Part shown: positions 13,842-53,500 of the stretch, piece by piece | How positions within the stretch are numbered: position 1 is the first letter of the stretch | How the letters are laid out: each line of letters opens with the position of its first letter | NCBI RefSeq assembly: GCF_009931435.1 | Contig: NZ_CP043414.1 | DNA: 64,000 bases | Reading direction: 5' to 3' (one strand) | DNA from: Escherichia coli | GTDB taxonomy: Bacteria; Pseudomonadota; Gammaproteobacteria; Enterobacterales; Enterobacteriaceae | The notes under the pieces: model-generated | The model's database searches: none | What the model was told of the DNA's origin: nothing | The model's input: only the letters and a program-made list of their open reading frames with translations | Translations under genes and position numbers: made by a program

Positions 13842-13847
13842 GCCTGC

Positions 13848-14985: not shown

Positions 14986-14994
14986 GAGGCCTTT

Positions 14995-15030
14995 GCTGCG
15001 ACTGCCATGTTTGAGTCGCAGCCTGTTTTG
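14995..15030 (+). terminator. Rho-independent terminator after adhP
   Basis: gctgcgact ... agtcgcagc stem followed by ctgtttt. Confidence 0.5.
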
Positions 15031-15170
15031 CGAGACGCTTTCCGCAATTTCACTCTTCTTCTTTTCCTCCCCCATCTTTCCTCTCACAATTCACGAAAAC
15101 GTAGCGAAATTTGTTGCGCTGCACGGAACAACAGTGATAGTGTTCCTTTCGAAGGAACAAGGATGAAGAG

Positions 15171-15449
15171 ATGATAATGAATTTCAGACACAAGGGATTG
15201 CGTGACTTGTTTCTTCTCGGCAAAACCTCCGGCGTTATACCGACGCAAATCAAACGATTACGCCACCGACTCGCTGTGATTGATGCAGCAAGCTGTCTTG
15301 CTGATCTCGATATGCCCGGTTACCGACTACACCCGTTAAGCGGCGATCGTGATGGAATTTGGGCGATATCTGTCTCGGGCAACTGGCGAATCACATTTGA
15401 ATTCGTCAATGGCGATGCATACATACTGGATTACGAGGACTATCACTGA
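15171..15449 (+). CDS. HigB-family (plasmid-maintenance killer type) toxin
   Basis: 92 aa; sequence pattern ([10 protein letters not shown] ... [20 protein letters not shown]) typical of HigB toxins; stop overlaps start of downstream HTH gene. Confidence 0.7.
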
Positions 15450-15733
15450 TGAAAATGGCCAATCATCCCCGCCCGGGGGACATTATTCAGGAATCACTGG
15501 ACGAACTTAATGTCAGCCTGCGCGAGTTTGCCAGAGCAATGGAAATTGCGCCCTCAACGGCAAGCCGATTGCTGACCGGAAAAGCCGCGTTGACGCCAGA
15601 AATGGCGATTAAACTTTCCGTGGTGATCGGCAGTTCGCCGCAAATGTGGCTGAATCTACAAAACGCCTGGAGTCTGGCAGAGGCAGAAAAAACGGTAGAT
15701 GTGTCGCGATTACGCCGTCTGGTTACGCAATAA
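15449..15733 (+). CDS. yddM: HigA-family HTH (XRE-type) antitoxin / putative regulator
   Basis: 94 aa; HTH region [34 protein letters not shown]; toxin-first HigBA arrangement; gene symbol from K-12 synteny (memory). Confidence 0.7.
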
Positions 15734-15785
15734 AAAAATGGCACCTTATAAAGCGCCATTTGAAACTGATGGCAAACGCAACATT

Positions 15786-15885
15786 GCCTGATGCGCTACG
15801 CTTATCTGACCTACACGTTCACTGCAATCTATTGGATTTGAACGGTTTGTAGGCCGGATAAGGCGTTCACGCCGCATCCGGCATG
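15786..15885. repeat. REP/BIME palindromic element cluster
   Basis: gcctgatgcgctacgcttatc... and gtaggccggataaggcgttcacgccgcatccggca match the classic REP consensus. Confidence 0.65.
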
Positions 15886-15913
15886 AATAAAGCCTACGTT
15901 GTCTACAATATGA

Positions 15914-15939
15914 AAATGGCGCCTTTTACAGCGCCATTT
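15914..15939 (-). terminator. Rho-independent terminator downstream of fdnI
   Basis: aaatggcgc-loop-gcgccattt hairpin; on minus strand followed by T-run. Confidence 0.5.
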
Positions 15940-15961
15940 TCAGCTTAAAGTTCAAAAGAGA

Positions 15962-16615
15962 TTATATCCCTTCTTCACTCTCTTTTTTCGCTTCTGCCTT
16001 TTCGATTTCACGATACCAGCGTGGATGGTGTTTCTTCGCCCAACGACGGCTCACCTTCCCTTCGATCATCCCTTTAATCGACCCTTTCACCCAGAATGCC
16101 ATATACATATGGATCAGGATGGCGTGGATCAGGATGATACCCGCAGCCGCGTGAATAAACAGGCTATAACGGACAACCTGTATCGGGAAGTACTGCGCAA
16201 AGTACGGACGCCAGATAATCACCCCGGTTACCAGCAGCACGAAAATCATGCTCATGATCGACCAGAACATCATCTTTTGCCCGGCGTTGTACTTACCAAC
16301 ATCCGCCACTTTGTGTTCATTGCCTTTTAATACTTCGACAATGTTCAACAGCCACGGAATATCTTTCTTATCCGGGATGTTGTGATGCACAAAACGCACA
16401 AACATAAACATCAGCGCGACGAAAATCGCAATGCCGAAGAACGGGTGCAAAATGCGTCCCATCTGCGGCGTACCGAAGGTTTGTGTCAGCCATTGCAGCG
16501 TCGGGAAGAAGAACGAAATCCCGGACAGCGCTACCAGGAAGAAGCAAATCACCACGGTCCAGTGACAGGCGCGATCAATAAACTTGGTGCGCACAATCAT
16601 TTTCGACTTACTCAT
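15962..16615 (-). CDS. fdnI: Formate dehydrogenase-N gamma (cytochrome b556) subunit
   Basis: Track ORF 15962-16657; start ATG at 16615 ([19 protein letters not shown]...) gives 217 aa; overlaps fdnH stop. Confidence 0.9.
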
Positions 16616-32849: not shown

Positions 32850-33544
32850 TGCAGATCCTCAAAGTGATCGGCCTGTTGATGGAGTACCCGGACGAGCTGT
32901 TGTGGGAGTGTAAGGACGACGCGCTGGCATTAATCCGCCGCGACGCGTCGATGCTCACCGATTTTGCACTCGACCTGCTCAACGCGCCGCTGCTGGATAA
33001 ACAGGCCGAATGGTGTGAAGTGTTCGACCGCGGGCGCACCACGTCGCTGCTGCTGTTCGAACATGTTCATGCCGAATCCCGCGATCGAGGCCAGGCAATG
33101 GTGGACCTGCTGGCGGAGTATGAAAAGGTCGGTCTGCAACTGGATTGTCGGGAACTGCCCGATTATCTGCCGCTGTACCTGGAGTACTTAAGTGTGCTGC
33201 CGGACGATCAGGCAAAAGAAGGATTACTCAACGTTGCGCCGATCCTCGCCCTGCTTGGCGGACGCTTAAAACAACGCGAGACACCGTGGTACGCGTTATT
33301 TGACGCCCTTTTGCAACTGGCAGGAAGTCCCCTGTCAAGTGACAGTGTCACAAAACAAATTCGTAGTGAAGAGCGTGACGACACCCGCCAGGCGCTGGAT
33401 GCGGTGTGGGAAGAAGAACAGGTGAAGTTTATTGAAGATAACGCCACGGCGTGTGACAGCTCGCCGCTTAATCAATATCAGCGACGTTTTAGCCAGGATG
33501 TCGCGCCGCAGTACGTCGACATCAGTGCGGGAGGTGGGAAATGA
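32849..33544 (+). CDS. narW: Nitrate reductase 2 assembly chaperone (delta)
   Basis: 231 aa, NarJ-like. Confidence 0.9.
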
Positions 33545-34221
33545 TTCAGTATCTGAACGTCTTTTTTTACGATATCTACCCGTACATTTGTGCGACGGTG
33601 TTTTTCCTTGGCAGCTGGCTGCGCTATGACTACGGGCAGTATACCTGGCGCGCCTCCTCGAGCCAGATGCTCGATAAACGCGGGATGGTGATATGGTCGA
33701 ATCTGTTCCATATCGGCATTCTGGGGATCTTCTTCGGTCATCTGTTCGGCATGTTAACACCGCACTGGATGTACGCGTGGTTTTTACCAGTGGCAGCGAA
33801 ACAACTGATGGCAATGGTGCTCGGCGGTATTTGCGGCGTGTTGACGTTGATTGGCGGTGCAGGACTGCTGTGGCGCAGGCTGACAAATCAGCGTGTGCGT
33901 GCTACTTCCACCACGCCGGATATCATCATCATGAGCATATTGCTGATCCAATGTTTGTTGGGGCTAAGTACCATACCGTTTTCAGCACAGTATCCTGATG
34001 GTAGCGAAATGATGAAACTGGTGGGTTGGGCGCAAAGTATCGTCACTTTCCGTGGAGGATCGTCAGAAATGCTTAACGGCGTAGCGTTCGTCTTCCGCCT
34101 GCATCTGGTATTGGGAATGACCATCTTCCTGCTCTTTCCGTTCACCCGACTGGTGCACGTGTGGAGCGCGCCTTTTGAGTACTTTACTCGTCGGCACCAG
34201 ATTGTGCGCTCGCGGCGATAA
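33541..34221 (+). CDS. narV: Respiratory nitrate reductase 2 gamma (cytochrome b) subunit
   Basis: 226 aa, 5 TM segments, overlaps narW by 4 nt. Confidence 0.92.
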
Positions 34222-34300
34222 TTCTCCCCCTGGCCGGATAGCCCTTCGCTCTCCGGCCACTTGCAGGCTATGATAGTTCTCCAGCCACAGGAGAACGTTA

Positions 34301-35194
34301 ATGAAACCGCAGGTGTACCACGTCGATGCTTTTACCGCTCAACCGTTTCGCGGCAATTCTGCCGGTGTTGTTTTTCCCGCCGATAAACTTAGCGAAGCGC
34401 AAATGCAGCTTATCGCCCGCGAATTAGGTCATTCGGAAACTGCTTTTCTGCTGCACAGCGACGACAGCGATGTGCGCATTCGCTACTTTACGCCAAAGGT
34501 TGAAGTGCCAATTTGCGGTCACGCAACGGTGGCTGCGCACTATGTACGTTCAAAGGTATTAGGTTTGGGAAATTGCACGGTCTGGCAAACGTCGCTGGCA
34601 GGAAAACATCGCGTGACTATCGAAAAGCACAACGATGATTATCGTATTTCGCTGGAACAAGGTACGCCGGGCTTTGAGCCACCGCTGGAAGGTGAAACAC
34701 GTGCGGCGATTATCAACGCATTGCATCTTACCGAAGACAATATTCTGCCGGGTTTGCCAATCCAGGTGGCAACCACAGGACACTCAAAAGTGATGATTCC
34801 GTTGAAACCAGAAGTGGATATCGATGCCCTTTCGCCTGACCTTGCTGCGCTGACCGCAATCAGCAAGCAGATTGGCTGCAATGGTTTCTTCCCGTTCCAG
34901 ATCCGCCCAGGCAAAAACGAAACCGATGGTCGTATGTTCTCGCCTGCCATTGGTATTGTGGAAGATCCGGTGACCGGCAATGCCAATGGCCCGATGGGTG
35001 CATGGTTGGTACATCACAACGTATTGCCCCACGATGGCAACGTGTTGCGTGTTAAAGGCCATCAGGGGCGCGCATTGGGGCGTGACGGCGTGATTGAAGT
35101 GACGGTGACAATTCGCAATAACCAACCGGAGAAAGTCACCATTTCCGGCACGGCGGTGATTCTTTTCCATGCTGAATGGGCCATTGATTTTTGA
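34301..35194 (+). CDS. yddE: PhzF-family isomerase-like protein
   Basis: 297 aa ORF. Confidence 0.85.
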   Translation: MKPQVYHVDAFTAQPFRGNSAGVVFPADKLSEAQMQLIARELGHSETAFLLHSDDSDVRIRYFTPKVEVPICGHATVAAHYVRSKVLGLGNCTVWQTSLAGKHRVTIEKHNDDYRISLEQGTPGFEPPLEGETRAAIINALHLTEDNILPGLPIQVATTGHSKVMIPLKPEVDIDALSPDLAALTAISKQIGCNGFFPFQIRPGKNETDGRMFSPAIGIVEDPVTGNANGPMGAWLVHHNVLPHDGNVLRVKGHQGRALGRDGVIEVTVTIRNNQPEKVTISGTAVILFHAEWAIDF

Positions 35195-35201
35195 TACCGT
35201 T

Positions 35202-35277
35202 GCCTGATGCGCTTCGCTTATCAGGCCTACAACCGGGCTAATGTGGGCCGGTTGTAGGCGTTTACGCCGCATCCGGC
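35202..35277. repeat. REP/BIME element between convergent yddE and nhoA
   Basis: gcctgatgcgcttcgcttatcaggcctac and gtaggcgtttacgccgcatccggc match REP consensus. Confidence 0.65.
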
Positions 35278-35289
35278 CCCTGGCACAAA

Positions 35290-36135
35290 CTATTTCCCCG
35301 CCTCCGGATGCGTATCAAACGCCGCCATCACCAACGCCAGTTCATCCACAGTAAAGCCATGCTTTGCGTCATCTACGCCCAGACCAAACTGCTCCTGCAT
35401 CACGGCATATAACGACGCCACATCCGCTAGATTTCGCTGCTCCACTGCATGTCCATTTTCATAATGGGTGAAATGAAAATTGGTCAGTGTCAGTTTTCCA
35501 CCGTCCGGCAAATGGCGGCACATCAGCAAATGATGGCGAAAATGCGATTGCGGCCAGTGCGCCGACCAGAAATTACCCATCACATAATCACTTTGTTGTT
35601 GTTCACAGAGATCAAAACGGTACATCGACTGCCAGTGCTGATGATGATTAAACTGCAAAATCCAGTCGTTCCCTTCCTGTAACAGCCGATATTCGCCATG
35701 TGGCGTTGTTTGCGCGATATCCGCCACTAAACGAATCGGCGCAGTCAAAGTCTGCCCACCGAAACCGACATCGGCAATCCAGTGTTCGCCTTCCAGCTCC
35801 ACCAACAACAAACGATGGGTACGCGGCGGTAATGCTGGCGGATTAGATAACACTACGCGCCCTAACAGACTGCGTACCTGAAAACCCAGCTCGCGTAACA
35901 CCCGCTCAAACACGCCATTCTGCTCAAAGCAGTAACCACCACGCCGGGCGAGCACCAATTTCTCTTCCAGCGATTGATCATCAAGCTGCATTTCTCTCGG
36001 CAGCAAAACATCGAGATTTTCAAATGGAATGGTGCAATTGTGTTTCAGGTGTAATGCGCGCAGCGTTTCGATATTGACCGCAGCCGCTCCCGACCAGTTA
36101 ATGCGGGTAAAATAGTGATTCAGAATGGGCGTCAT
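35290..36135 (-). CDS. nhoA: Arylamine N-acetyltransferase (N-hydroxyarylamine O-acetyltransferase)
   Basis: 281 aa ORF MTPILNHYFTRINWSG... Confidence 0.9.
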   Translation of the reverse strand: MTPILNHYFTRINWSGAAAVNIETLRALHLKHNCTIPFENLDVLLPREMQLDDQSLEEKLVLARRGGYCFEQNGVFERVLRELGFQVRSLLGRVVLSNPPALPPRTHRLLLVELEGEHWIADVGFGGQTLTAPIRLVADIAQTTPHGEYRLLQEGNDWILQFNHHQHWQSMYRFDLCEQQQSDYVMGNFWSAHWPQSHFRHHLLMCRHLPDGGKLTLTNFHFTHYENGHAVEQRNLADVASLYAVMQEQFGLGVDDAKHGFTVDELALVMAAFDTHPEAGK

Positions 36136-36309
36136 CAGGCGTTTCCGTTTGTGGTTTTCTCAATTTATAACCTGGAATAGACGCCGCACCGGCTATTTTG
36201 TGCGATCGCGGACATGCATCACGTTCGCAAATCGCCAATCCCGTTAATTTCGTTACTTATTGCGTTACGAGCTACGCTTTTAAAACAACCTTCTTAGCGA
36301 GGCGATACC

Positions 36310-36879
36310 GTGAGCCGATTCATCCCCGTCGAATTACACCATGCCAGCCGTCTGTTAAACCACGGCCCCACCGTTTTGATAACAACTTTTGATGAAAAAT
36401 CACAGCGACGTAATGTGATGGCTGCGGCCTGGTCGATGCCGGTGGAGTTTGAACCGCCACGCATAGCGATTGTGGTAGATAAATCGACATGGACCAGGGA
36501 GTTGATTGAGCGTAACGGTAAATTTGGCATCGTTATCCCGGGCGTTGCGGCAACTAACTGGACGTGGGCGGTGGGAAGTGTGTCGGGTCGTGAAGAAGAT
36601 AAATTTAATTGCTATGGCATTCCGGTTGTGAAAGGTCCGGTGCTTGGATTGCCGCTGGTTGAAGAGAAATGTCTGGCATGGATGGAGTGTCGATTGCTAC
36701 CAGCGACTTCTGCGCAAGAAAAATACGATACGCTATTTGGCGAAGTGGTATCGGCAGCGGCAGACGCACGAGTATTTGTCGAAGGCCGCTGGCAGTTTGA
36801 TGATGATAAACTCAATACGTTGCATCATTTAGGTGCTGGCACGTTTGTTACCAGCGGGAAGCGAGTTGCCGCGGGGTAA
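36310..36879 (+). CDS. yddH: Flavin reductase-like protein
   Basis: 189 aa, GTG start. Confidence 0.85.
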   Translation: MSRFIPVELHHASRLLNHGPTVLITTFDEKSQRRNVMAAAWSMPVEFEPPRIAIVVDKSTWTRELIERNGKFGIVIPGVAATNWTWAVGSVSGREEDKFNCYGIPVVKGPVLGLPLVEEKCLAWMECRLLPATSAQEKYDTLFGEVVSAAADARVFVEGRWQFDDDKLNTLHHLGAGTFVTSGKRVAAG

Positions 36880-37270
36880 AGAATCATATGCAGCAACCAA
36901 GTTGCTTAAGCAATGTTTCCATATGAGTTAAAAGATATTTTATCTCACGATTGCATATTTTTAGTGAAGATTAATTTATCCTCACCAACATCATAGTAAT
37001 TGCGTATTATCGCCTCATTGATAAAGCCCTATTTTGTATAAAATGCGCGGGCGGCACTAAAATCGATATGGCTAGAGATCTCTACTAAAAGTAGTCTTGC
37101 GTGATTGGGACAGGTCAAGAAAAAGCAGTTTTGCAGTTTTTTATTTCAGGGCGCAGTTGCGAAAATTGAATACCGTATGGACTAATGTGAGAAAATTCCG
37201 AGGTACGACTGTTTTGATATAGTGGACAATCAAGCGTCTCGAATTAACAATGAATTTCAGGTGCCAAGCC

Positions 37271-37993
37271 TTACAATTTGTAGCATGACGGATATAGGAC
37301 AACATTAGGAAATCGGACAGAAAATTCATTATAATAAAATGACAACTTATCTCTTTCTCTCACGTTCTGTGAAATTTCACAAAAGTATAAACTGAGCCAA
37401 TATGCCTTTATATATAAAAAATACTCATGTTTATTATTATCGGAAAAAGCCAAGATTTGATTAAGGCCATCAAAAATATCTTTCTCATGATCTATATGTA
37501 CTCTTGATGATTTTACAATATCTTTTAATTCGCGGTAAATCTTATTAAATAGCGCAACCGATTCACTGTTATTGAATCCATAGTTGATAAAAAGACATGA
37601 TTTAACATCCGATATTAGCAAGTCGTCATAATTCATCTCTATTTCAGACAATTTCACGATATACTCAGCTATAGTATTACTTTGTAAGGACTCAACAACT
37701 GACAGTAAAACAGATGGATGCAATAATATTTCAAGAAGACTTTTATCGATATTTTTATACACATTTATTGCAAATTCATCATTCGTCCCATCGATGGTGT
37801 CAGATATTGAAAAAAATACATAATCGGGGAGTTCATACCACATATTAATTTTAATAATATCACGACACATATCTTCTAATTGTTGTAATCTATTACCTTT
37901 ATTCATAACAACCTTAATATTATATGGAATCTTTGGCGGAATCTTCTTAACTCTGAGGAATTTTACTAAACCTTTGTTAGAGAAAATATGCAT
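37271..37993 (-). CDS. Hypothetical protein, AT-rich orphan ORF (no recognisable domain)
   Basis: 240 aa ORF, very low GC, no signal peptide or motif recognised; directly downstream of ISAs1 remnant. Confidence 0.45.
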   Translation of the reverse strand: MHIFSNKGLVKFLRVKKIPPKIPYNIKVVMNKGNRLQQLEDMCRDIIKINMWYELPDYVFFSISDTIDGTNDEFAINVYKNIDKSLLEILLHPSVLLSVVESLQSNTIAEYIVKLSEIEMNYDDLLISDVKSCLFINYGFNNSESVALFNKIYRELKDIVKSSRVHIDHEKDIFDGLNQILAFSDNNKHEYFLYIKAYWLSLYFCEISQNVRERDKLSFYYNEFSVRFPNVVLYPSCYKL

Positions 37994-38069
37994 ATCACTG
38001 ACAGCGTGTTATTAATTCACTCTGGTGTTATATAACAAAAATATCCCCTCCTGTTTTCACCTCTTTGTA

Positions 38070-39280
38070 TTCATGATAGTTAAGGGGAGTGCTAACTTAA
38101 TATAAACACCCAGGGCAAGATTACGAAAGCCCGCTCCCCGCAAGGACTGACGCCAGATACTTTCTGTCCATGGTTGCTTTTCGCATCTTACGTCTTAACC
38201 CTGCTTGAATACCTCATCATTCGTCAAAATATTAATAGCGATGTGCCGTATCCCTGAAAATAATTCTGCTGCATTTCCTCTTCTTATTTTGCAGTCGTCT
38301 TCATTCATTACCACGTCCAGACGCCAGTGCAGCTTATTCTCCACGTGCCAGTGGTTTCGGATTGCTGTGGCGAACTTCTCTGCGGTTAAATCAGCAGAAC
38401 TGATATAATATCTGACCGTCATTTCTGGCTCTTTCTTTTGTTCTGCTATTATTGACCGAAAGGAGACTGCCACGCATAATTTCTTCAGACCTTTCCATTC
38501 AAACGTGAAATCAATAAGTTCATCAGGGACATCGCAAACAATGTGAAGACGGATTTCTTCTCTGCCGTGACTCTTTTCACTAATTGCGTAACTGTCATGC
38601 TCTGGATTATTTAATTCTTTCAGCGGAAATTTTTCCTCGAAGCCTTTATTTAGCCGCCCCTGGTTTCCTTTTACAGCGAATAAATAATCACCTCCCTGTT
38701 TTTGTATCTTCTCTGCAATATCTTTCTGGCAACCCATCGCATCAGTTGTGATGATTTTTCCTTTAATATCCAGCATGTTAAGAAGTTCTGGGATAGCTGT
38801 AATCTCATTGGATTTCTCATCCGTCTTGATCTGTCCGATGACCAGACTGTGCATTGTTGAGAACGCACTAATGACATGAATCGCTCCCCTGCGGCGACTC
38901 TTGTCATAAGAGTGCCGGAGCGTTTTTCCATCAATTGCAATGACGTCTTTATCATCTGAAGAATGGCAGTCACGCATCCAGTTAATAAAGCACTCATGAA
39001 ATTTTGCAGGACTGATACAGGATACAACTTTGGCAATGATATCGTGAACAGGAATACCATTTTCAAAATCACCATATCACTTCAAAAAATCGAGATGTGT
39101 TTCCCAAAAATTCGCTATATTTTCCTATCCTTCTGCACCAAAAATAACGGCACAAATAGCCAACAGTAGAATATCCGATAATTTATGCTCCACTTTCCAG
39201 GCTTGTCTGTAATCGGGGATAACAGAAATATGTTCCATCAATTTTTTAAGTACCATTTTGTTCTCCTTAATTATGTAAGG
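38070..39280 (-). mobile_element. ISAs1-family (H-repeat) insertion sequence, boundaries approximate
   Basis: Transposase-homologous sequence flanked by imperfect inverted repeats (about 38073-38087 atgatagttaagggg vs 39263-39277 ctccttaattatgta). Confidence 0.5.
38195..39238 (-). pseudogene. ISAs1-family transposase (H-repeat-associated protein) inactivated by two in-frame nonsense codons
   Basis: Hand translation from ATG 39238: [37 protein letters not shown]-stop-ENIANFWETHLDFLK-stop-YGDFENG..., continuing in frame into track ORF 38195-38977 ([11 protein letters not shown]...). Confidence 0.8.
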
Positions 39281-39562
39281 AGTATTTGATCATGTATAAG
39301 CAATAAAAAACAGCTTCAGGTAATGAGGAATATCTCAATTTTTAAACATAAAATGCGAATTGTTTAGTACAAAAAGTGTACTTCTGATGATCTTTCCCTG
39401 CCTATCAGCCCCCCTGCTGAACCCTGCACAATATCCAGTCCCTTGCGGGTCATGTCACCCTGCCGCGCCGCCGGTTTTCCGCTCATGGTTTATTCCTTTT
39501 CTTTTACCTTACATGTCCATACAAATAGTTACCTATACTGTCTTTGAATATTGCCCTACCAT

Positions 39563-40012
39563 TTAAAGCCCACCTATTTCTTGCGACAGAAAAGGGATTT
39601 CTTTTTTAATCCAATCTATCATTTCATTTTTTTCAAAACATACGTTAATGCCATTCACACTGCCACATTCACCAAAACCATCAAAATAAATTTCACATTT
39701 ATTATTTTTATTCGAAACAATGTCAACCCCCCATCTTATATCGTTATTCTCCTCCTTCCTGAAATACTTCATTTGCAATAAATCAATTATCTCACCAGCA
39801 TAAAAATCGCTAACCCCATTCACCACCACTTTATGTTTGTATATTCTCTTGAGACCTTCCTTGCTAAGCGGGGTTAAGGTGGTAACATATGCTGGAAGAT
39901 TAATTATTTCTATCGTTTTCACACTATCTATTCCACACAATTCATTCACTCGCCCCATCCCCAATACCGAAGCAGAAAATAGAGACAATAAAACCATCAA
40001 ATATTTCATCAT
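39563..40012 (-). CDS. Candidate Rhs immunity protein with N-terminal signal peptide
   Basis: 149 aa; starts 12 nt after Rhs stop; hydrophobic N-terminus MMKYLMVLLSLFSASVLG; AT-rich. Confidence 0.5.
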   Translation of the reverse strand: MMKYLMVLLSLFSASVLGMGRVNELCGIDSVKTIEIINLPAYVTTLTPLSKEGLKRIYKHKVVVNGVSDFYAGEIIDLLQMKYFRKEENNDIRWGVDIVSNKNNKCEIYFDGFGECGSVNGINVCFEKNEMIDWIKKEIPFLSQEIGGL

Positions 40013-40024
40013 AAAAAAATCTCA

Positions 40025-43000
40025 CTATTCTGGCGTGCCATTTATTGTTGCCGTCTGCGTTGGTGTATTCACACGATAATACACTCCATTATATGCTGTT
40101 CTGGTACACTCACCTAAAGTTTTCGCCGCATGCTGTTCAATTAAAGTGATAACTCTCGCCTCTTCTTTATTTTTATATTGTTCATCCGCACGTCTCACAA
40201 GCCCCATATAACCATCCTTATCAATAAGATATAAGTGCGCATGAGCAAACTCATGCCCCAAACCTAATGCAGGTGATTGTGATTTCGATTTTAAATCAGT
40301 TGAACAAAATAAAGCCGCCTTACCATTCCAATATATAGTCATTTTATCCGGGTCAAATCTAACGTCGGTTTCATCAATATACTCTATCTTTATGGTTTCT
40401 TCAGAGCTTGATAAAAAATCTATAGCTTCTTTCATTCGTGAATCTTGTTTTAAATACTCAACAGCCTGATTAAAATCACTTGGATCACCGTTAACATGGA
40501 ATTTTAAACCCAAAGAATCTATAAACCGAACAGGGTTTAATGGATATTTATACAGATTCCATTCACCTCTTAGCCCGATTGGATCCTGGGTGATATACCT
40601 CCCCTGTAGCGGGTCATAGTACCGGTTCCGGTTATAATACAGCCCCGACTCCTCATCGTGTTGCTGCCCTGGCAGACGGTACGGCTGGTGCATGTGATGC
40701 GAGTTTTCCTCATTCAGCAGGTTTCCCCACTCATCATACTCCCCGCTCCACGCCGTATTGCCGTCTTCGCTGATGAGCGCCAGCGGCAGGCCCCGGTGGT
40801 CGCAGTGATACAGATGCAGCGTGCGTGCCGGTGTGTATTCCGGCTCCACCTGTCTGGCCAGTTGCTCCACCGTCAGCCCGCACTGCGCAAGCCACGCCCG
40901 GCTTTCACTGCTCACGCGGTCTGCCCGGATTTCTTCCTCCAGCCTGTCCAGCATCCTCACAAGTTCTGCCGGGAACACCACACCGTGCCCGTCCTCACTC
41001 CCTTCCTGCTGCAGCTTCTCCGCCAGGCTCCGGCGCTGCGCTTTCTCCCGCTCGCCGTTCTCTGTTTCGATGCGGATGAGCGGCGTGAAGCTCCCAGGCT
41101 GGTAGACCGTCTGGATACGTGTGGTGTCGGTCTGTACCGTCGTCAGCCGGTCACCGTCCCACCCGTACCACGTTACCTCCGGTTTACGCGACAGCGACAT
41201 CCACCCCGTCAGGTCACGCTCCCGCCGCCATACCCGTTTCGCCATTCGCCGTCCCAGCGGGTCGTAGAGGTAGCGGCTCTCGACCAGTGGCTCGCCATGC
41301 TGTATCCGCGTGTAGAACACCAGGCGTGCTGGCTGTCGTAGTGGTAGTGGTGGGTCCGCTCGTCGTCCGTCCGTATCACACCCGCCGGGATGCGGTCCGT
41401 CTTCTCCGTCAGCCTGCCGTATTCATCGTGGCGGTAGACATAGTGCGCATCCTCCGCGATGCGGTTATCCGGCCACACTGTGAGTGTACTGTCCGGGTGC
41501 AGCTCCGGGTCCGGCAGCCGGTTGCCCGCCGGGTCCGTGGCATACGGGATGCGGATGTCCAGGTCCGGTGCGAGGGTGCGCACGCTCTCCAGCCTGCCCG
41601 TGGCACTGTAGCCGTATTCCCGCGTCTGTCGCGGGCCGCTGATGCGCACCAGGTCGCCGTTGTCATTCCACCCGTAGTCACGGTCATACACCAGGCTGTT
41701 CAGGTGCTGACTCTGTAACTGACCTGCGGGGGTGTATGTGCTGGTCAGTTCGTATGCGGAATTACTGCCTGCCATGCTGCCGAAGCTGCGCACCGTCTCA
41801 CGGTGCAGCCTGTCCCGCGTATACTCGACCAGCGGCGTCCCGCCCAGCTTCATTCCCGCCAGGTAACCGCTGCCATACGTCAGCCACTCCACCGGCGGCA
41901 GGCTGTCCGGCGTGACGCGGTTTGCCAGCCCCTGTTCGTTGTATGCCTGTTTCGTCTCATGCTGCCAGAGCAGTTCCTCCGTCTCCGGGTTATGCACCGT
42001 CTGGCGCTCGCCAGTCAGACGGCCCTTGTCGTCATAGCCATAGTGGACGGCAACACGGTGGCCTTCGCTCAGGTGGCTGATTTCTCTCAGCCAGCCGTGG
42101 CCATCATACTGCCACTGCTCTGCCGGTTCGCCGTTCACCGTGCGGTGCGTGATGCGGTCCGATTCGTCGTAGTGCCAGAGGGTGACAAGCCCCTCATCTT
42201 CACTCTGCGTGAGTTTTCCGGTCAGGTCATAGTGGTAACGTTGCGTCCGCCCGTCAAAGCCGCGCTGCTGTACCAGCCGGTCCAGCGCATCGTAGGTAAA
42301 CTCACTTCGGCTGCCGTTCTCGTTAGTCAGCGTGGTGACACGTCCGGCAGCATCATACTCCATACTGCGCGTCAGCCCGCCCTGCGTGGTACTGACCGCC
42401 TTTCCCCACGCATCGTACTGTGTCTCACTCCGGTTGCCATCCGGGGTGATGACGGCGGTCAGGTCGCCTGCGGCGTTGTACTCATACTGCGTTTCACGGC
42501 CCTGTGCGTCTTTCACCGAGGTTAACCGGCCACGGTTGTCATAGCGGCGGTAAAGGCTGATACCTTCCTCGCGGTGAACCGCCGTCATCTGGCCGAAGCG
42601 GTCGTATTCATAGCGGGTCTGGTAGCCCGAGCAGTCGGTGAAGGCCAGCAACTGCCCGTAGCGGCTCCAGGTCATCTGCCGGGTGCTGCCCGTCGCATCC
42701 GTTGTCGTCGCCGGTAACTCACTGTGCGGATTATCATAAGCATACCGGATGACGTCCCCGCTGCGCGATGTCTCCGTTACCAGCCTGTCCCGCTCATCAT
42801 ACGCCCGGCGGCTCTCCAGCCCGTCCGGGGACACCACCGCCGTTAACTGGTTCCCGTCGTTATAGTAAAATTTCGTCTCCCGCCCGTCCGGCGTGGTGAT
42901 ATCCGTGATATCGCCGGACACCACATTCAGGCCGTACTCTGTCCGCCGTCCCGCCGCGTCCGTCTGTGCCGTGAGCCTTCCTGCCGCGTCATACCCGCTG

Positions 43001-44277
43001 TGCGTGACGCTGCCGTCCGCCAGTTCTTTTTTCACCACCCGCTTCAGCCCGGCCCCGCCTTCTGTATGCAGCACCTCTCGCCGGTTCAGGCTGTCCGTGA
43101 TGGTGATGCGGTCCTGCTCATAAAGATAGCGATAGCTTAACCCTGCCGGGTTCAGCTGCTCCACCACCCGCCCGGTATCGTCGTAGCGGTAGCGCATCTC
43201 CGGCCTTCCCGCATAACGGTGCCCCACCATCCGGCCCGGGTGCTGCGCGTCATACGTGAAAGCGCGCACCTGCGTATTGCTGCGGTCATATACCGCCAGC
43301 AGTTCACCGGCTTCCGTATACGTGTAACGCGCCAGTGGCGCACCGGGCAGATTCTCCGGGTATGCCGGGTCGTGCATCAGCCACACCGCCGAAAGACGGA
43401 TGCCCCTGTCGGGGCCGTATTCCGTACCGGGCAGTGTGTCGGGGAACGCTGAGGCTGAGAGAGGGCGGGAACGGTCAGAAGAAGATAGCGAAGAGGTGCG
43501 GGCCTCTTCCGCACGCTGCGCCTGCGTGGTCAGCACCAGACGGAACTTCCGCCCGGCACCGTCCGTCACGCTGGTGATTTCCCCAGCCAGGTCACCGGCG
43601 GCCTCACGCCGGTACGTCAGCGTCCGCCCGAAGCGGTCCGCCAGCCCGGTAAGCACCCGGTACGGCGGCAGCGGCGCTGGCAGTACGTCCTCAGCACCCG
43701 GCACCCGCTCACTCCACCCCAGTATCCACCACGACCCCTGTGCGCTGTTGGTCGCCAGGTAAAGATGCGGGCTTAACCGGATATCCGGCGGCAGCGCCCC
43801 CCACAGTCGCGCCAGCGTGTGGCCGTCCGGCTGCGCTGCCTTACCACCGCGCACCAGCCACATTGACTCGCTGCGGCTGTACACCGCCTCCCCCGGCAGC
43901 AGCGGCTCAAAGTGAATGCTCCGCCCGCCGTTGTCGTTGAGTATCAGTGCGTCATCACGTAGCTGTAAGCGGATATCCGAAGGCGCTTTCCAGCCGGGGC
44001 CGAAAACGCCCACCGGGGCAGGCGTCCTCGTCCGGTAGCTGCTGTAGGTGCGGGAGAGAATGAACGGCAGCGGGCCGGGCAGCGCAAGGTCCGTCTCGCC
44101 GGGCAGCACCTTCGCCCCCAGCAGCGGATTTACCGGGTTGCCCGAAGTCATCCCGCCCGGACACACCGAGCACGCCACGCCGGTGGGCGCGCCAATTCTT
44201 ACACCTGCCGAACCCTGGACAATGGGACCGCCATACTGAGTCATATCTCCCTGACGCGCTGCTGGTTTTCCGCTCAT
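40025..44277 (-). CDS. Rhs-family polymorphic toxin (PAAR-like N-terminus, YD-repeat shell, variable C-terminal tip), interrupted by an apparent -1 frameshift near 41325
   Basis: Track ORFs 41209-44277 (1022 aa) and 40025-41320 (431 aa) overlap in different frames; YD repeats throughout; DPIGL core-end motif; C-terminal tip contains HEFAH. Confidence 0.85.
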
Positions 44278-44343
44278 GATTCAATTCCTTCTTCTGTTTA
44301 TTTTTAATGCTTGTTTGTTACTGAATACCGAACAGGTACGGGA

Positions 44344-46452
44344 TCAGTACTCTCTCATATCCGGCGTATCCTGCTTTTCATCAGGGGTCTTCGGTGGGGA
44401 TTTCGAGGCTGCACAGTTCCAGTTAATCAACAGTGAGTCACCATTAACCTGCTCCTTACCCTGCAAATGAATTTTTGTGCCGTTGAGAAAAATTTGTCCG
44501 TCCTTAGTCAGCACCAGCCTTGCCTTACCACAGCAGAGTTCCAGATGCTCACCGGCGGAGTAAATCGCGGTCTGCCCGGTATCATCCTTTTTCGTTTTAC
44601 CAACGGTGAAGGTAACGTTATTTCCGACTTTGACGTCATAACCCAGCCCGACCATCAACGATTTATGCAAACCGATCTGCGAGGACTGCATCAGGGCCAC
44701 CGAGGTGTTCATAATGCCACCTACCGTCGTCTGATACGCCACGCCCACAGTCAGCGCACGAACAAGTCCAATCGTTTCCACCTGAACAGAGCCCACTTTA
44801 ATGATCTGGTTACTGCCCACCGTCTCTATCTGGTTAACGCCCACCGTCTGTATCTGATTGTTGGTAACCGCAATCACCTGATTGTTGCCGATGGTCTCAG
44901 CATGGTTGTTTATCACATCCGTGGTGCGGTTATTCAGCACCTCGGTGTTCATGTTCTTCTGCGCGTGGATGTAGACCTGTTCTTTCCCTGTCGCATCGTC
45001 AAACTTCAGTTCATTAAACCCGCTGCCCTTATAGGTTTTCGAACGAATGGTCATCTGCGTCTTTGTTCCCGGCAGGCTGCCGGGGGTGCGGTTTTCCTGG
45101 TGGTAGGTACGCCCCATAATAATCGGCTGGTCCGGATCGCCGTTGAGGAAGTCCACAATGACCTCCTGACCCACACGCGGTATCGCCAGGTTACCAAACC
45201 CGGTGCCTGCCCACGCCTGTGCCACACGGATCCAGCATGAACTGTCCTGGTTTGACGGGTTATAACGGTCCCAGTTAAATTTCACCCGCACGCGGCCATG
45301 TTCATCACAGAAGATTTCTTCTCCTGCCGGTCCCGTCACGACGGCGCTCTGCGGGCCATCCACCAGCGGTTTCAGCAACGGCTGTGGCCGCCATGTTCTG
45401 TCTGCCGGTATTACCGCAAAGTGGTTATTCAGCGTGGTACCTGAACCCCTGCGTCCCGGCACCGCCTGCGGCTGCTCGCCGTGCAGTTCACTTGCCACCA
45501 CCTGCCATTCCCGGTTCAGGTTCGCCTGCGGATGCCCCGTCAGCGCAATTCGCCGTCCCGGCCATATCTCCGGAGAACGGCTTGTTCCGCGCGCCACTTC
45601 TGCGTTGTTTCGCCAGCCATCCATCTGCCAGCGGGCAAAGTTCTGCCCGTGGGCACCCTTGAAACGTCCGGGGTAGTCATACACTTCATACTGTGTGCGC
45701 TGGTAATCCTGGTACTGGCCTTCCTGATCAAAACGCCCTGCCCAGCCGGGTCGTTTAAAGGTGTAGTCCTTGGTCACCACGGAAGAAGGGCGGATTTGTG
45801 CGCTGTAGCGGAACTGGCTGATGCATAGGGTGCTCACCTCGGTACGGGTGTTCGGATTCCAGGGGATCTCAAAGGACTCCGGCAGATAACGCACGGTGTC
45901 GCACAGGACCAGGCTCTGGTCGGTACTTTTTTGCGCGTGCTCCTCATAAAAGAAGATGCCTTCCTCCGCCGCCATCCGGCACAGGAAATCGTAATCGGTT
46001 TCGCCGTACTGGACACAAAACTCACGGGAAGGATGCGGCTCGCTGAACAGCGGACTCCACTCGGTCACCCCGTTTTCTTTCAGGATCGTCGCGAGTATGC
46101 TTTCGATGTCCTCATTCTGGAAGATACGGAAGTTCTGGCGCAGCCCTGTGCGCCACAGCGGTGGGCACACCTTCATGCTGTACAGCATCTGGTTTTTGTC
46201 GTTCTCCCCCAGTTCAAACCAGGTCACCACACCTTTTACCCGGCGCTGTACGTCATCGCCCTGCCATACCGTCAGGTAGGCCATTTTGTCGAGGATCTGC
46301 GGAAATTCAAGGGAAAGAAACTGCTGACTGACCAGAGAAAGGTCGAGGGAAAAAAGTGAAGAGAGTGACTGGGTGAGATGAAAGGAAACCACCGCAAACG
46401 CGTCCGGTGGCAGGCCGTCCACTTCCAGCGTGAAACGTAATCCGGTTGACAT
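44344..46452 (-). CDS. vgrG: VgrG-type T6SS spike protein
   Basis: Track ORF 44344-46488; start at ATG 46452 (MSTGLRFTLEVDGLPPDAF...); gp27/gp5-like; Val-Gly repeats (VGVNQIETVGSNQIIKVGSVQVETIG). Confidence 0.9.
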   Translation of the reverse strand: MSTGLRFTLEVDGLPPDAFAVVSFHLTQSLSSLFSLDLSLVSQQFLSLEFPQILDKMAYLTVWQGDDVQRRVKGVVTWFELGENDKNQMLYSMKVCPPLWRTGLRQNFRIFQNEDIESILATILKENGVTEWSPLFSEPHPSREFCVQYGETDYDFLCRMAAEEGIFFYEEHAQKSTDQSLVLCDTVRYLPESFEIPWNPNTRTEVSTLCISQFRYSAQIRPSSVVTKDYTFKRPGWAGRFDQEGQYQDYQRTQYEVYDYPGRFKGAHGQNFARWQMDGWRNNAEVARGTSRSPEIWPGRRIALTGHPQANLNREWQVVASELHGEQPQAVPGRRGSGTTLNNHFAVIPADRTWRPQPLLKPLVDGPQSAVVTGPAGEEIFCDEHGRVRVKFNWDRYNPSNQDSSCWIRVAQAWAGTGFGNLAIPRVGQEVIVDFLNGDPDQPIIMGRTYHQENRTPGSLPGTKTQMTIRSKTYKGSGFNELKFDDATGKEQVYIHAQKNMNTEVLNNRTTDVINNHAETIGNNQVIAVTNNQIQTVGVNQIETVGSNQIIKVGSVQVETIGLVRALTVGVAYQTTVGGIMNTSVALMQSSQIGLHKSLMVGLGYDVKVGNNVTFTVGKTKKDDTGQTAIYSAGEHLELCCGKARLVLTKDGQIFLNGTKIHLQGKEQVNGDSLLINWNCAASKSPPKTPDEKQDTPDMREY

Positions 46453-47272
46453 AGCAACCTCCGTGAAAATGAATAATAATCCGCACATATTGCATGTACA
46501 ACATGTCGGACGGATGAGATAAGCGAGTCGACATCTGGCGTTACCGGGGAATATCAGAAAAATGTCATGGTTATGTGATGATTTAGTCTGGGATTTTACT
46601 TCAGAGAAACGGGTGTCTGTTTAGTCAACAAAATAATCACAAACGCAACGGATGGGTTCTCGACGTTATTCACGACAGGCTCGTACATTACAGCGAGTAA
46701 TAAAAAACCTGATATGCAAAGTCAAACCAATATTCATAATGTCTTTTTATTCACAAAAATAAATAATTCAATAACAATCATTGAAATGAATGATGGTTTG
46801 TATAAGGAATATACGCTACCGCCCCACCCTGATAACATGATCTGCACATTGCCATCTTAACGTCGTTAAACACTGGCTTAATAGTGGATATTTCAAATTA
46901 GGAATTTATTAAATTCACCTGATGAATATCATAAGCAAATAGCATAGAAAATAATGACAACTCCCCCGAGGGGACCATTTCCAAAGCACTGCAACACCAC
47001 CTGGTGCCCGGATGATCTTGCTTCAGTGGTAAGAGTACCTGATTCATTGTTCCCAAAATGGTGTTTTCCCCTGCCCCTCCAATAACGTGCAGCTCTCACG
47101 TGATAATCTATTGATTAGGTTATATTAAGAATCAATATTTGAAATACATCCATTTTCTTGAATAAATCAACATATTTATTTATCAATTGCTGTTTTAGCT
47201 CTGACTCATCAAACTCTCCATATTTTTCCTACAGAAAATCGCGAATAAATACAGAGAACGCCATTTATCCTT

Positions 47273-47485
47273 TTAGCATACCTGCCGGATATTTTTATTT
47301 GTATTAATATTAATTGCATCTCCAACTCCGAGCATATCCATTATTAAAGACATTTTGAGATTATAGAATGCCTGTGATAACAACTGAAACATCTGCACAA
47401 TGTGAATAGTTAGTTTCTTTTCAGAGGAAATGAAATAGACAAGCTGAATGAAAGGGAGAGTGATATAAATTAAAAAACATAACAT
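47273..47485 (-). CDS. Small hypothetical protein (YncH-like by position and length)
   Basis: 70-codon ORF in AT-rich region; only ORF in the 1 kb gap; identity by position only. Confidence 0.3.
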   Translation of the reverse strand: MLCFLIYITLPFIQLVYFISSEKKLTIHIVQMFQLLSQAFYNLKMSLIMDMLGVGDAININTNKNIRQVC

Positions 47486-47560
47486 GAATCTAATTAATTA
47501 CGTCCATCATTGTGGATAAAGTTACTGAATAATAAATAACATAATATTCTGGTATCCCAC

Positions 47561-48178
47561 TCAAATAATTTCATTCCTTTTTAATACTTCTTGTAATTTC
47601 GGTAACTGACATACAGCATCAGCGATCGCACTGATATTCGTGGCATTATCCTGAAACCATTCATGCCCAGGCCCCCATGTGCGCATAGTGCAAAGATAAC
47701 AGTCCACCAGCGTTAGTTGCTCACCAAACGCATAAGGTTCAGCGGTCAATTGTGAATTCAGCCAGATATAAAGCGATTTACGATATTCAATAACATTCTT
47801 CTTTAACTGTTCGGGTGCGTCAGGAGCCCAACGCTCAGGGTAATCGGCGAAAGTGAATGTTGGATAGACATTAGCAACCAGCCAGACCAATAGCCGTTGA
47901 AACTGCTGACGTTCGGCGCGCCTAACCGGTGGCGCAAGGTCCGGGCGACGATCGAGAACCATCAATGCAATCGCCGCTGTCTCCGTCATAATCTCGTCAT
48001 TTTCCAGCGCCAGTGTCGGAATCTGACACAACGGGTTCAGGGTTTTCAATAACTCGCGTGAAGTTCCCTCGTGGTCAAAACCACTGACATCAACGAACTG
48101 ATAAGGAATATCAGCCAGTGATAGCATCAGCTCACTGATTGTAGAGCCCCATCCGGGTACGCCATACACCTTAATCAT
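47561..48178 (-). CDS. yncG: Glutathione S-transferase homologue
   Basis: 205 aa ORF MIKVYGVPGWGSTISELMLSLADIPYQF... Confidence 0.85.
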   Translation of the reverse strand: MIKVYGVPGWGSTISELMLSLADIPYQFVDVSGFDHEGTSRELLKTLNPLCQIPTLALENDEIMTETAAIALMVLDRRPDLAPPVRRAERQQFQRLLVWLVANVYPTFTFADYPERWAPDAPEQLKKNVIEYRKSLYIWLNSQLTAEPYAFGEQLTLVDCYLCTMRTWGPGHEWFQDNATNISAIADAVCQLPKLQEVLKRNEII

Positions 48179-48444
48179 ATGCCCCTCACAATCTTTTAAA
48201 GATTAAGTGTAGGACAGTACACAGGTTAACCAGCAAAAGGATTTGTCATTTTTTCGTCAGTTGTATTATTCCCCTTCAGGATTGTAAGGGGATGTTTTGC
48301 ATCGTTTATCGATAACGGGTAGGATGCTGCGCCGATAGTTTTATACCCATAAAGAATAATGGTGATAACTATCATCGCCAGGATGAATAAACATTGTTCA
48401 TGGCAACTTATATGACTTTTTCATTAAAGCAATCAGGGAGAGCA

Positions 48445-49944
48445 ATGAGTAAACACGACACCGACACTTCAGATCAACACGCCGCGAAACGTCGCTGGCT
48501 TAATGCCCACGAAGAGGGGTATCACAAAGCGATGGGCAATCGCCAGGTACAGATGATCGCCATTGGCGGCGCGATTGGCACCGGCTTGTTTTTAGGTGCA
48601 GGAGCCCGACTGCAAATGGCGGGGCCAGCACTGGCACTGGTCTATTTAATCTGCGGCCTGTTTTCATTTTTTATTCTGCGTGCATTGGGTGAGCTGGTGC
48701 TACACCGCCCTTCCAGTGGCAGTTTTGTCTCTTATGCCCGTGAGTTTTTGGGTGAGAAAGCCGCTTACGTTGCTGGCTGGATGTACTTCATCAACTGGGC
48801 GATGACCGGGATTGTTGATATTACCGCTGTCGCTCTGTATATGCATTACTGGGGCGCGTTTGGCGGCGTGCCGCAGTGGGTCTTTGCGCTCGCTGCGCTG
48901 ACCATCGTTGGCACCATGAATATGATCGGTGTGAAATGGTTTGCGGAGATGGAGTTCTGGTTTGCGCTTATTAAAGTGCTCGCCATTGTGACCTTTTTGG
49001 TCGTGGGTACAGTGTTCCTCGGTAGTGGTCAGCCGCTGGATGGCAACACCACTGGCTTTCATTTAATCACCGATAATGGCGGCTTCTTCCCCCATGGTTT
49101 GCTACCTGCGCTGGTATTGATTCAGGGCGTAGTGTTTGCTTTTGCCTCCATTGAAATGGTGGGTACAGCTGCCGGAGAATGTAAAGATCCGCAGACCATG
49201 GTGCCTAAAGCGATTAACAGTGTGATTTGGCGTATTGGCCTGTTTTACGTCGGCTCCGTGGTGTTGCTGGTTATGTTATTGCCGTGGAGCGCGTATCAGG
49301 CGGGGCAAAGTCCGTTCGTGACGTTTTTCTCTAAACTGGGCGTGCCTTACATCGGCAGCATTATGAACATTGTGGTGCTGACCGCTGCCCTCTCCAGCCT
49401 GAACTCAGGTCTGTACTGCACCGGACGTATTCTGCGCTCAATGGCGATGGGCGGTTCCGCACCGAGTTTTATGGCGAAAATGAGTCGTCAGCATGTGCCG
49501 TATGCCGGGATTCTGGCGACACTAGTTGTGTATGTCGTCGGCGTATTCCTCAACTATCTGGTGCCGTCGCGCGTATTTGAAATTGTGTTGAATTTCGCGT
49601 CGCTGGGAATCATCGCATCATGGGCGTTTATCATTGTTTGCCAGATGCGCCTGCGTAAAGCGATTAAAGAAGGCAAAGCAGCGGATGTCAGTTTTAAACT
49701 GCCTGGCGCGCCCTTCACTTCCTGGCTGACATTACTGTTTTTGCTGAGCGTCCTGGTGCTGATGGCGTTCGATTACCCGAACGGAACTTATACCATTGCG
49801 GCGCTGCCGATTATCGGTATTCTGCTGGTTATAGGCTGGTTTGGTGTGCGCAAACGCGTTGCTGAAATTCACAGCACTGCGCCAGTCGTCGAGGAAGATG
49901 AAGAACAACAGGAAATTGTGTTTAAGCCAGAGACGGCGAGTTAA
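48445..49944 (+). CDS. ansP: L-asparagine permease (APC family)
   Basis: Track ORF 48394-49944; start ATG 48445 (MSKHDTDTSDQHAAKRRWLNAHEEGYHKAM...) gives 499 aa, SD gggagag upstream. Confidence 0.9.
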   Translation: MSKHDTDTSDQHAAKRRWLNAHEEGYHKAMGNRQVQMIAIGGAIGTGLFLGAGARLQMAGPALALVYLICGLFSFFILRALGELVLHRPSSGSFVSYAREFLGEKAAYVAGWMYFINWAMTGIVDITAVALYMHYWGAFGGVPQWVFALAALTIVGTMNMIGVKWFAEMEFWFALIKVLAIVTFLVVGTVFLGSGQPLDGNTTGFHLITDNGGFFPHGLLPALVLIQGVVFAFASIEMVGTAAGECKDPQTMVPKAINSVIWRIGLFYVGSVVLLVMLLPWSAYQAGQSPFVTFFSKLGVPYIGSIMNIVVLTAALSSLNSGLYCTGRILRSMAMGGSAPSFMAKMSRQHVPYAGILATLVVYVVGVFLNYLVPSRVFEIVLNFASLGIIASWAFIIVCQMRLRKAIKEGKAADVSFKLPGAPFTSWLTLLFLLSVLVLMAFDYPNGTYTIAALPIIGILLVIGWFGVRKRVAEIHSTAPVVEEDEEQQEIVFKPETAS

Positions 49945-49952
49945 TTGCAAAA

Positions 49953-49980
49953 TTGCCCGGCTATGTGCCGGGCAAATTCA
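49953..49980 (+). terminator. Rho-independent terminator after ansP (shared with convergent yncE)
   Basis: ttgcccgg-ctatgt-gccgggcaa hairpin; adjacent REP-like gccggatgcggcgtga. Confidence 0.55.
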
Positions 49981-50056
49981 GATTAGAAACGAGGGTGCCG
50001 GATGCGGCGTGATAAAAGTCAGGCAAGTCTCTCAGTTTTCACCCTCGCCATATCTA

Positions 50057-51118
50057 TTACAACGCAATACGAATCACATCGTCCGGCTGAGTAGCTTCCT
50101 GCTGTTTAGTAGATTTTTGTTTCACACTGACATACAGCGTTTTGCCATCGGCAGACAGCGCCAGGCTGTTCGGATGGGTCGGCGTATCGAACGTTTTCAC
50201 CACTTTATAGCTTTTCGCGTCAATCACACTGACTTTACCTGCCTGACGATGCGTTACGTAGGCTTCATTACGCGCTGGGTTAAACAGCACAGCCAGTGAT
50301 TCCGGTGCCGCAACCTTCGCCAGAATATTGCCATTACGGGTATCGACCACTAGCACTTCTGCCGCTTTAGAATCGGTGATAAATGCACGCTGCCTGGCGG
50401 TATCGAGGCTGATGTTGATAAAGAAGTGCTCTTTGCCATCATCCAGCAGCTTTTTACGGCTGAGGATTTTATTGTCGGCGGTGTCGATGGTAATCAATTC
50501 ACCATCGGCATTAGTGGTGTAAAGACGTTTGCCTTTGCTATCCAGCGCCAGACCGGTACTCATTTTACCGGTGTTCTGGATGGCGGTTTTCAGTTTGATA
50601 TTCTCGCCATCAACGACCCAAATCACGCTCTCTTTACCAATACCACTGATGTAAACGGTGTTCGTGGCATCATCAGCTACCAACTCACGCGGTTGCAGCG
50701 GGCGCACCTCTTCCGTGCTCTTACGATCATCCAGCACCAGACGGCCTTTCACTTCGCCCGTTTTGGCATCTATCGCCGTGACCGCGCTGTTTACGGTGTT
50801 ACCAAACCACAACGTCTGAGTCGTGTTATTGATGGTGGCACCAAACGGCTTGAGATCGTTATGGATCGCCTGCGTCACTTCCAGAGTGACCGGATCAAGA
50901 CGATAAACCACGCCACCTTTATCCAGTTTGCGGCTTTGCGAAGTGGCGAGCCACAGCGCGTTTTCTTGCTGGCTATAAGCCATTTCGTAGGCACCTTTAC
51001 CTACCGCTTTACGCAGCATTTCTTCTGCGGCCTGCGTACTGAATGATGAAGCAACAAGCAATGAACCTAACAGTAATGAACCACGCAGGCGCGATGAAAA
51101 CAGATGACGTAAATGCAT
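50057..51118 (-). CDS. yncE: Beta-propeller protein YncE (secreted)
   Basis: 353 aa ORF with signal peptide. Confidence 0.88.
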   Translation of the reverse strand: MHLRHLFSSRLRGSLLLGSLLVASSFSTQAAEEMLRKAVGKGAYEMAYSQQENALWLATSQSRKLDKGGVVYRLDPVTLEVTQAIHNDLKPFGATINNTTQTLWFGNTVNSAVTAIDAKTGEVKGRLVLDDRKSTEEVRPLQPRELVADDATNTVYISGIGKESVIWVVDGENIKLKTAIQNTGKMSTGLALDSKGKRLYTTNADGELITIDTADNKILSRKKLLDDGKEHFFINISLDTARQRAFITDSKAAEVLVVDTRNGNILAKVAAPESLAVLFNPARNEAYVTHRQAGKVSVIDAKSYKVVKTFDTPTHPNSLALSADGKTLYVSVKQKSTKQQEATQPDDVIRIAL

Positions 51119-51359
51119 GACGACTCCCTTTGATGAACCGATATTTTTGCTGCTTCACAATGCTTCGCTAAGCGTAATCATCGTTACGCTCTTGTTATAA
51201 ATGGGAATGATAATCATTATTTTCTCAAATGTGGAGCATTTCTTGCCGTTACGACTACAATTTTCTCAATTACTTAACGTATTGTGCCGTTTCATTTTCC
51301 ATAAATTTACAATTTCATTACCATGACGGCGTTTTCCCATTCTTAACCTGGCTTTTTTC

Positions 51360-53462: not shown

Positions 53463-53469
53463 TTATATT

Positions 53470-53500
53470 GATGCCCGGTATTTGCCGGGCATTTAATTTA
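53470..53500. terminator. Bidirectional hairpin terminator between convergent yncD and mcbR
   Basis: tgcccgg-tatttg-ccgggca flanked by A/T runs on both sides. Confidence 0.6.

Follow-up and report, generated by a model that had tools for sequence, protein, structure and literature searches.

An inactivated copy of ISEc1 (H-repeat) at the RhsE locus of Escherichia coli

ISEc1 at the RhsE locus

The occurrence of H-repeats beside Rhs elements is textbook E. coli biology and goes back to the classical papers of the Hill laboratory. ISEc1, the H-repeat, belongs to the ISAs1 family, which has ISAs1 of Aeromonas salmonicida as its type and also includes IS1358 of Vibrio cholerae (ISfinder). Elements of this family are about 1.2–1.5 kb long, are bounded by short terminal inverted repeats, and encode one long DDE transposase that begins with a DDE_Tnp_1-associated domain. 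The copy described here shares these features, and differs in having neither a flanking duplication nor an open transposase gene. An H-repeat beside Rhs is already known at the b1455–b1461 locus, and according to a paper on E. coli W, transposition of H-rpt has not been observed experimentally (PMC3032704). The mentions of ISEc1 in another paper, PMC10711316, actually refer to ISEc12.

The element lies within a 64-kb stretch of E. coli DNA (64,000 nucleotides, hereafter the window), and is an ordinary broken copy of ISEc1 that represents the positional counterpart of ydcC (b1460) in E. coli K-12. Judged by the surrounding genes (nhoA, yddH, yncG, yncH, and ansP), it belongs to the RhsE locus, in which the K-12 order is rhsE, ydcC, and yddH–nhoA, and it is on the yddH–nhoA side of RhsE as ydcC is. 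The two copies have the same termini, the same 378-aa frame once that of the window is repaired, and 96.4% identity over the whole 1291-bp unit. However, ydcC is an open 378-aa gene with the yncI pseudogene on its left and pptA on its right, whereas the window copy contains two nonsense codons and a frameshift, and has a 5′ remnant of an rhs gene as its left neighbour and an AT-rich segment of 1.2 kb as its right one, the difference from K-12 beginning directly at each terminus. This right flank is common to the ydcC-locus copies of strains WL297 and 2020CK-00188. K-12 yncI (b1459) is another dead ISAs1-family gene in the RhsE locus, which indicates that decay of H-repeats there is routine; it is, however, a different and much older relic, with approximately 66% identity to the element over 643 bp. 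We put at about 0.88 the probability that the window copy is a dead, non-autonomous ISEc1 relic resident at RhsE, with three lesions, junctions that would have been rearranged, and a sequence that would be a patchwork.

The extent of the element was established by end-to-end alignment with three full-length copies of 1291 bp, two from strain 0-4 and K-12 ydcC. The complete unit spans 1290 bp (38111–39400, minus strand), and is 97.3% identical to the 0-4 copies and 96.4% to ydcC over positions 1–1290. Both 11-bp termini are intact. The left, transposase-proximal inverted repeat CAGGGAAAGAT (39390–39400, minus strand) is identical in K-12, 0-4, PCN033, and 2020CK-00188, and the right repeat CAGGGCAAGAT (38111–38121, plus strand) matches it at 10 of 11 positions. 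Within the 64-kb window the terminal pattern CAGGGMAAGAT is confined to these two sites, where it is inverted; 0.04 occurrences would be expected by chance. The first-pass annotation had placed the element at 38070–39280, which is wrong: those coordinates take in 41 bp of flanking DNA and omit 120 bp of the left end. The imperfect terminal repeats reported there were a chance match, probably the pair 38076–38088/39262–39274 (13 nt, 85%); the 1.6-kb stretch has 78 pairs of similar quality, this one included. One arm of this pair lies in non-IS flank that strain 042 keeps without an adjacent IS, and the other overlies the ribosome-binding site of the transposase gene.

At positions 12–25, in the left end, ISEc1 copies fall into two sequence variants. 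In WL297 (7379–9279), the counterpart of the window copy carries a group II intron, with an annotated ltrA reverse transcriptase/maturase, inserted about 15 nt inside the left end of the IS.

Assignment to the ISAs1/H-repeat family, as originally proposed, is borne out by the repaired 378-aa product, which scores 403.2 bits (E = 7e-121) against the NCBIfam model NF033564 'ISAs1 family transposase', whose cut-off is 70 bits. Pfam matches to PF13808 (DDE_Tnp_1-associated; residues 8–94, E = 5e-30) and PF01609 (the DDE_Tnp_1 catalytic domain; residues 102–343, E = 1e-30) delineate the two-domain architecture. The curated transposase model, this architecture, and the short terminal inverted repeats are thus those of the family, while a flanking target-site duplication and one uninterrupted transposase ORF are lacking; the copy is a member of the ISAs1 family by descent, and is not autonomous. 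A megablast search found ISEc1 in 5,348 of 5,426 complete E. coli genomes, at a median of 5 places per genome, and in 4,915 of the 5,426 a match extends over 80% of the query or more. The matches are annotated in the databases as 'ISAs1-like element ISEc1 family transposase' or as ydcC. No second ISAs1 copy is present elsewhere in the 64-kb window.

The transposase gene and its lesions

The intact transposase gene consists of 1137 nt, encoding 378 residues and a stop. The window holds an 1136-nt pseudogene on the minus strand (38121–39256) that starts at the ATG at 39256, and the repaired translation of which matches NF033564, PF13808, and PF01609. Two in-frame nonsense codons had been noted before, separated by 15 sense codons, and both are confirmed. 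The first, TAG at 39127–39125, replaces the TGG of W44, which is TGG in all six of the seven comparators that cover the position; it is codon 44 by translation, and follows residue 43 rather than residue 37 as first described. The second, TGA at 39079–39077 (codon 60), replaces the CAA of Q60 and entails two adjacent base changes in the comparator alignment.

The frame had been regarded as free of frameshifts and otherwise intact, which does not hold. All seven comparator copies read TTCAAGGCAGGG, and the window reads TTCAAGCAGGG, which represents a 1-bp deletion (GG to G at 38204/38205) that none of the seven shares. The deletion falls at the boundary of codons 351 and 352, shifts the frame into a premature TAA at 38197–38195 (the lesion as a whole spanning 38195–38205, minus strand), and drops the last 25 residues (354–378). 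The third in-frame stop is consequently reached after '...NDEVFKQG', well before the normal end, and putting the missing G back restores the 378-aa frame. Both nonsense codons are located inside the N-terminal DDE_Tnp_1-associated domain, which in addition carries nine private amino-acid replacements; the frameshift comes shortly behind the DDE domain. The three lesions are missing from every comparator that covers them. The transposase gene is dead, and the element would no longer be self-mobile; at most it could be mobilized in trans, by the transposase of a different ISEc1 copy. The observations of the first-pass annotation are thus confirmed in part, and its interpretation is supported in part. 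The proper annotation is an ISEc1 pseudogene at 38111–39400 with three disabling lesions and not a nearly intact transposase. Beyond this correction, the copy is of little consequence; a decaying IS relic is known biology.

Inactivated ISEc1 genes are frequent in E. coli assemblies, and the databases list many shortened products of about 100–195 aa (for example, 167, 179, and 194 aa), several of them under the name 'H repeat-associated protein' and others as 'DDE_Tnp_1-associated family protein'. They derive from the same IS, likewise inactivated, but the products that were aligned owe their truncation to a frameshift at about codon 115–125. The nonsense alleles at codons 44 and 60 were not found elsewhere in the genomes and collections searched, and a scan of the genome collection for the two-stop allele returned 0 matches.

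Junctions and mosaic structure

No target-site duplication, the presence of which had been suggested as a check, was found at the ends first assigned or at the true ends: the element is flanked by ggctgatagg and ggtgtttata, with no 10-bp duplication. ISEc1 can generate 10-bp duplications, as copy A of strain 0-4 is flanked by GGGTTTATAA, and this duplication is indirect evidence that ISEc1 transposes in nature. Because copy A is the only one of seven copies examined that has a duplication, the absence of one here marks later rearrangement and not a different family.

The left junction is defined by comparison with 36 E. coli genomes. A second rhs gene is represented by its first 86 nt alone (39401–39486, minus strand), which end exactly at the IS terminus; the window sequence 39401–39620 is 100% identical to these 36 genomes, in which a full rhs continues, and the identity ends at the junction base. 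In PCN033, one of the 36, the order is vgrG, rhs, a 149-aa ORF, the second rhs, two small ORFs, and ISEc1, and the window aligns with the first part of this array at 96.4% (46463–39401). On the right, strain 042 matches the flank up to ...ATATAAACAC and has then 811 extra bases before the IS end; the right flank of K-12 is unrelated and leads to pptA. Neither of the present flanks goes back to the original insertion: there is no 10-bp duplication, the left end is joined to nucleotide 86 of an rhs gene whose body is gone, and the DNA at the right end has 811 further bases in 042. None of the 5,426 E. coli genomes has the rhs 5′ fragment joined to the IS end in this way, and the genome-collection scan likewise returned 0 matches. 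Within these searches the junction and the two-stop allele are unique, although the kind of object they belong to is already known.

Since the breakpoints lie exactly on the IS termini, their most likely origin is either an adjacent deletion mediated by transposase or an insertion with subsequent IS–IS recombination, at a time when transposase would still have been available. We infer the order and mechanism of these events from the non-identical genomes PCN033, 042, and WL297, and a role of the transposase in the deletions is an indirect inference, given the statement on H-rpt transposition in PMC3032704. The second route, in which ISEc1 would have inserted into the second rhs gene and homologous recombination between two ISEc1 copies would then have deleted the intervening DNA, is a serious contender against one-ended adjacent deletion, at somewhat below even odds. 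In its favour, E. coli has a median of five ISEc1 places per genome, tandem or partial copies exist, and the window copy is visibly a mosaic whose segments have different nearest relatives. On the other hand, no genome was found that carries the proposed intermediate, no rhs–IS junction occurs in the 5,426-genome set, and IS–IS recombination and adjacent deletion leave the same final structure, so that the two are indistinguishable here.

The mosaic structure is apparent from the distribution of the 18 private changes along the element. Thirteen of them, including both stops, fall in a 228-bp patch (38996–39223, minus strand; element positions 178–405 in the comparator alignment), and the others are found at position 22 (one), position 758 (one), and positions 1186–1227 (three). 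Counts per segment follow the same pattern. Positions 26–177 show 0 differences in 152 from the WL297 counterpart, positions 178–405 differ from every copy at 16–23 of 228 sites, positions 406–1185 differ at 2 of 780 from a copy at another Rhs locus of 2020CK-00188, and positions 1186–1290 differ from every copy at 4–8 of 106 sites. The contrast between patch and centre is significant (Fisher P = 8e-7; scan-statistic simulation P ~3e-5). In the 5,426 complete E. coli genomes, the best BLAST match to 39040–39260 reaches 94.6% (among 23,397 places) and that to the 101-bp core of the patch 93.1%, against 99.7% for the central 761 bp. The clustering of 13 of 18 private changes within 228 bp points to a recombination mosaic. 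The simplest reading is that of an old, neutrally drifting copy, of which the 228-bp stretch would have been left to drift, while the stretches beside it would have been replaced through recombination or gene conversion involving further ISEc1 copies. The mutation spectrum of the patch is that expected without selection: of its 13 private base changes, 11 replace an amino acid or introduce a stop, transitions account for 11, and 8 lead from GC to AT. A scheme of old ends and a converted centre is too simple, because positions 26–177 are identical to WL297 despite a divergence of about 3% in the flanks; more than one or two exchanges must be invoked.

Alternatively, recombination could have brought the patch in from an unsampled and diverged relative of the ISAs1 group, itself perhaps defective by then, an origin we consider possible but doubtful. 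Its sharp boundaries, with 0 of 152 differences on one side and 2 of 780 on the other, are the signature of a short recombination tract. However, no donor emerges: the best DNA identities are the 94.6% (patch) and 93.1% (core) given above, and a search of 5.8 billion protein sequences gave at best 92% identity for the N-terminal part. The residues A33, F39, N46, A48, N49, I73, and K76 are carried by none of the top protein matches aligned, and exact-pattern scans for the patch in genome and metagenome collections were empty (0 for the TAG patch in metagenomes). Moreover, the high non-synonymous fraction means that any donor would itself have been a pseudogene.

The element would still serve as a block of homology for recombination. 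A more far-reaching proposal is that the dead IS has been kept, or repeatedly reused, as a recombination anchor for the swapping of Rhs/VgrG toxin–immunity modules. In all the genomes compared (K-12, 042, WL297, PCN033, and that of the window), the ISEc1 termini are the exact points at which the DNA on either side changes. The element may on this proposal be a patchwork of exchange tracts, with the untouched 228-bp patch recording the age of the copy. We regard such a role as unlikely; were it true, H-repeats would count as structural components in the turnover of Rhs cassettes and not as passengers. As it stands, the copy is a small and clean example in which exact-terminus junctions and patchy divergence show IS copies both shaping and recording the rearrangement of an Rhs locus.

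Returning to the reading of a drifting copy overwritten by exchange, its clean centre coincides with a residual ORF of 260 aa (38195–38977, minus strand) that starts at M94 and retains the DDE catalytic domain without the N-terminal domain. It is highly improbable that this ORF is expressed and has been retained to make a truncated or domesticated protein, such as an inhibitor of ISEc1 transposition. The frame is open, and its central 780 bp contain only one private change, but selection would spare synonymous changes, of which about ten would be expected at the rate of the patch and essentially none are seen. As the silent changes are missing too, purifying selection on the ORF cannot explain the clean centre, and recent sequence exchange fits it better. 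In addition, no Shine–Dalgarno sequence is seen by eye upstream of the ATG at 38977, the promoter and terminator scan gave no more sites than in shuffled sequence, and the exact 260-aa product is not on record in public assemblies.

That the stops and the deletion are sequencing or assembly errors in an intact and active ISEc1 is scarcely credible: the closest positional counterpart available, ydcC of WL297, is annotated as an intact 378-aa gene, and the assembly of the near relative 2020CK-00188 breaks inside the IS, in a region that is hard to assemble, but in the window three independent lesions accompany 15 further private substitutions, two neighbouring bases had to change to give the TGA, the deletion lies in a 2-base run with no long homopolymer, and the private changes have a natural spectrum rich in transitions and in GC-to-AT changes.

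The surrounding Rhs island

The association with Rhs that was originally recognized is confirmed, in that the element is positioned between an ORF downstream of the Rhs toxin tip and a 240-aa orphan ORF; the 86-nt remnant of the second rhs gene separates the immunity-like ORF from the IS. The IS had also been taken as the likely edge of an accessory element. Relative to K-12, however, the variable region runs from about 36926 to 46519, and the IS sits 1.2 kb inside its right edge. This outer 1.2 kb is the AT-rich segment (36926–38110; 30–38% GC), which replaces pptA and is present in 660 of the 5,426 E. coli genomes. Except for about 48 bp of its 3′ end, pptA is gone. The segment contains the 240-aa ORF (37271–37993). 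Neither this ORF nor the 149-aa ORF on the other side of the IS has a match in Pfam, NCBIfam, or PADLOC, and an Rfam scan of 36800–40100 found nothing.

The main rhs gene (40025–44277, minus strand) is split into two overlapping ORFs in different frames (41209–44277 and 40025–41320). Relative to the intact Rhs of PCN033, one C is missing near 41327, and the gene is either a frameshifted pseudogene or affected by a sequencing error. With a dead IS, a frameshifted rhs, and an 86-nt rhs stub, the whole Rhs island looks degenerate and decaying. The upstream vgrG (44344–46488) is intact.

The C-terminal tip of Rhs has a HEFAH motif, possibly that of a metallopeptidase, and no Pfam match. The 149-aa ORF (39563–40012) begins, as judged by eye, with an apparent signal peptide. 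The tip, the 149-aa ORF, and the rhs stub together differ from the T6SS-1 locus of PCN033 at only three positions, whereas the adjoining 600 bp of rhs core (40600–41199) differ from it by 9–19% per 300 bp. The contrast between a nearly identical tip cassette and a divergent core suggests that the cassette was recently exchanged.

Relatedness to other strains also changes sharply across the island. The window from 46542 to 62000 is 100% identical to strain 2020CK-00188, while the nhoA side (33000–38642, narI to yddH) is 97% identical to that strain and about 92.7% to typical E. coli. This places a recombination boundary within the island, and the comparison suggests that the narI–yddH side may be an introgressed, divergent segment ending at the Rhs island.

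At the same locus, strain 042 has only fragments of the IS (within 10185–16118), one of 464 bp from the 3′ part and one of 130 bp from the 5′ part, which flank a PAAR–VgrG–peptidase M35 module; its 811 extra bases, located between the shared flank and the right IS end, hold a 561-bp ORF. In strain 0-4 (1–2800), tandem ISEc1 copies lie downstream of an Rhs element. One is bounded by the clean 10-bp duplication GGGTTTATAA, and the other, with partial repeats of the left terminus ahead of it, is fused to an internal site of a truncated third copy.
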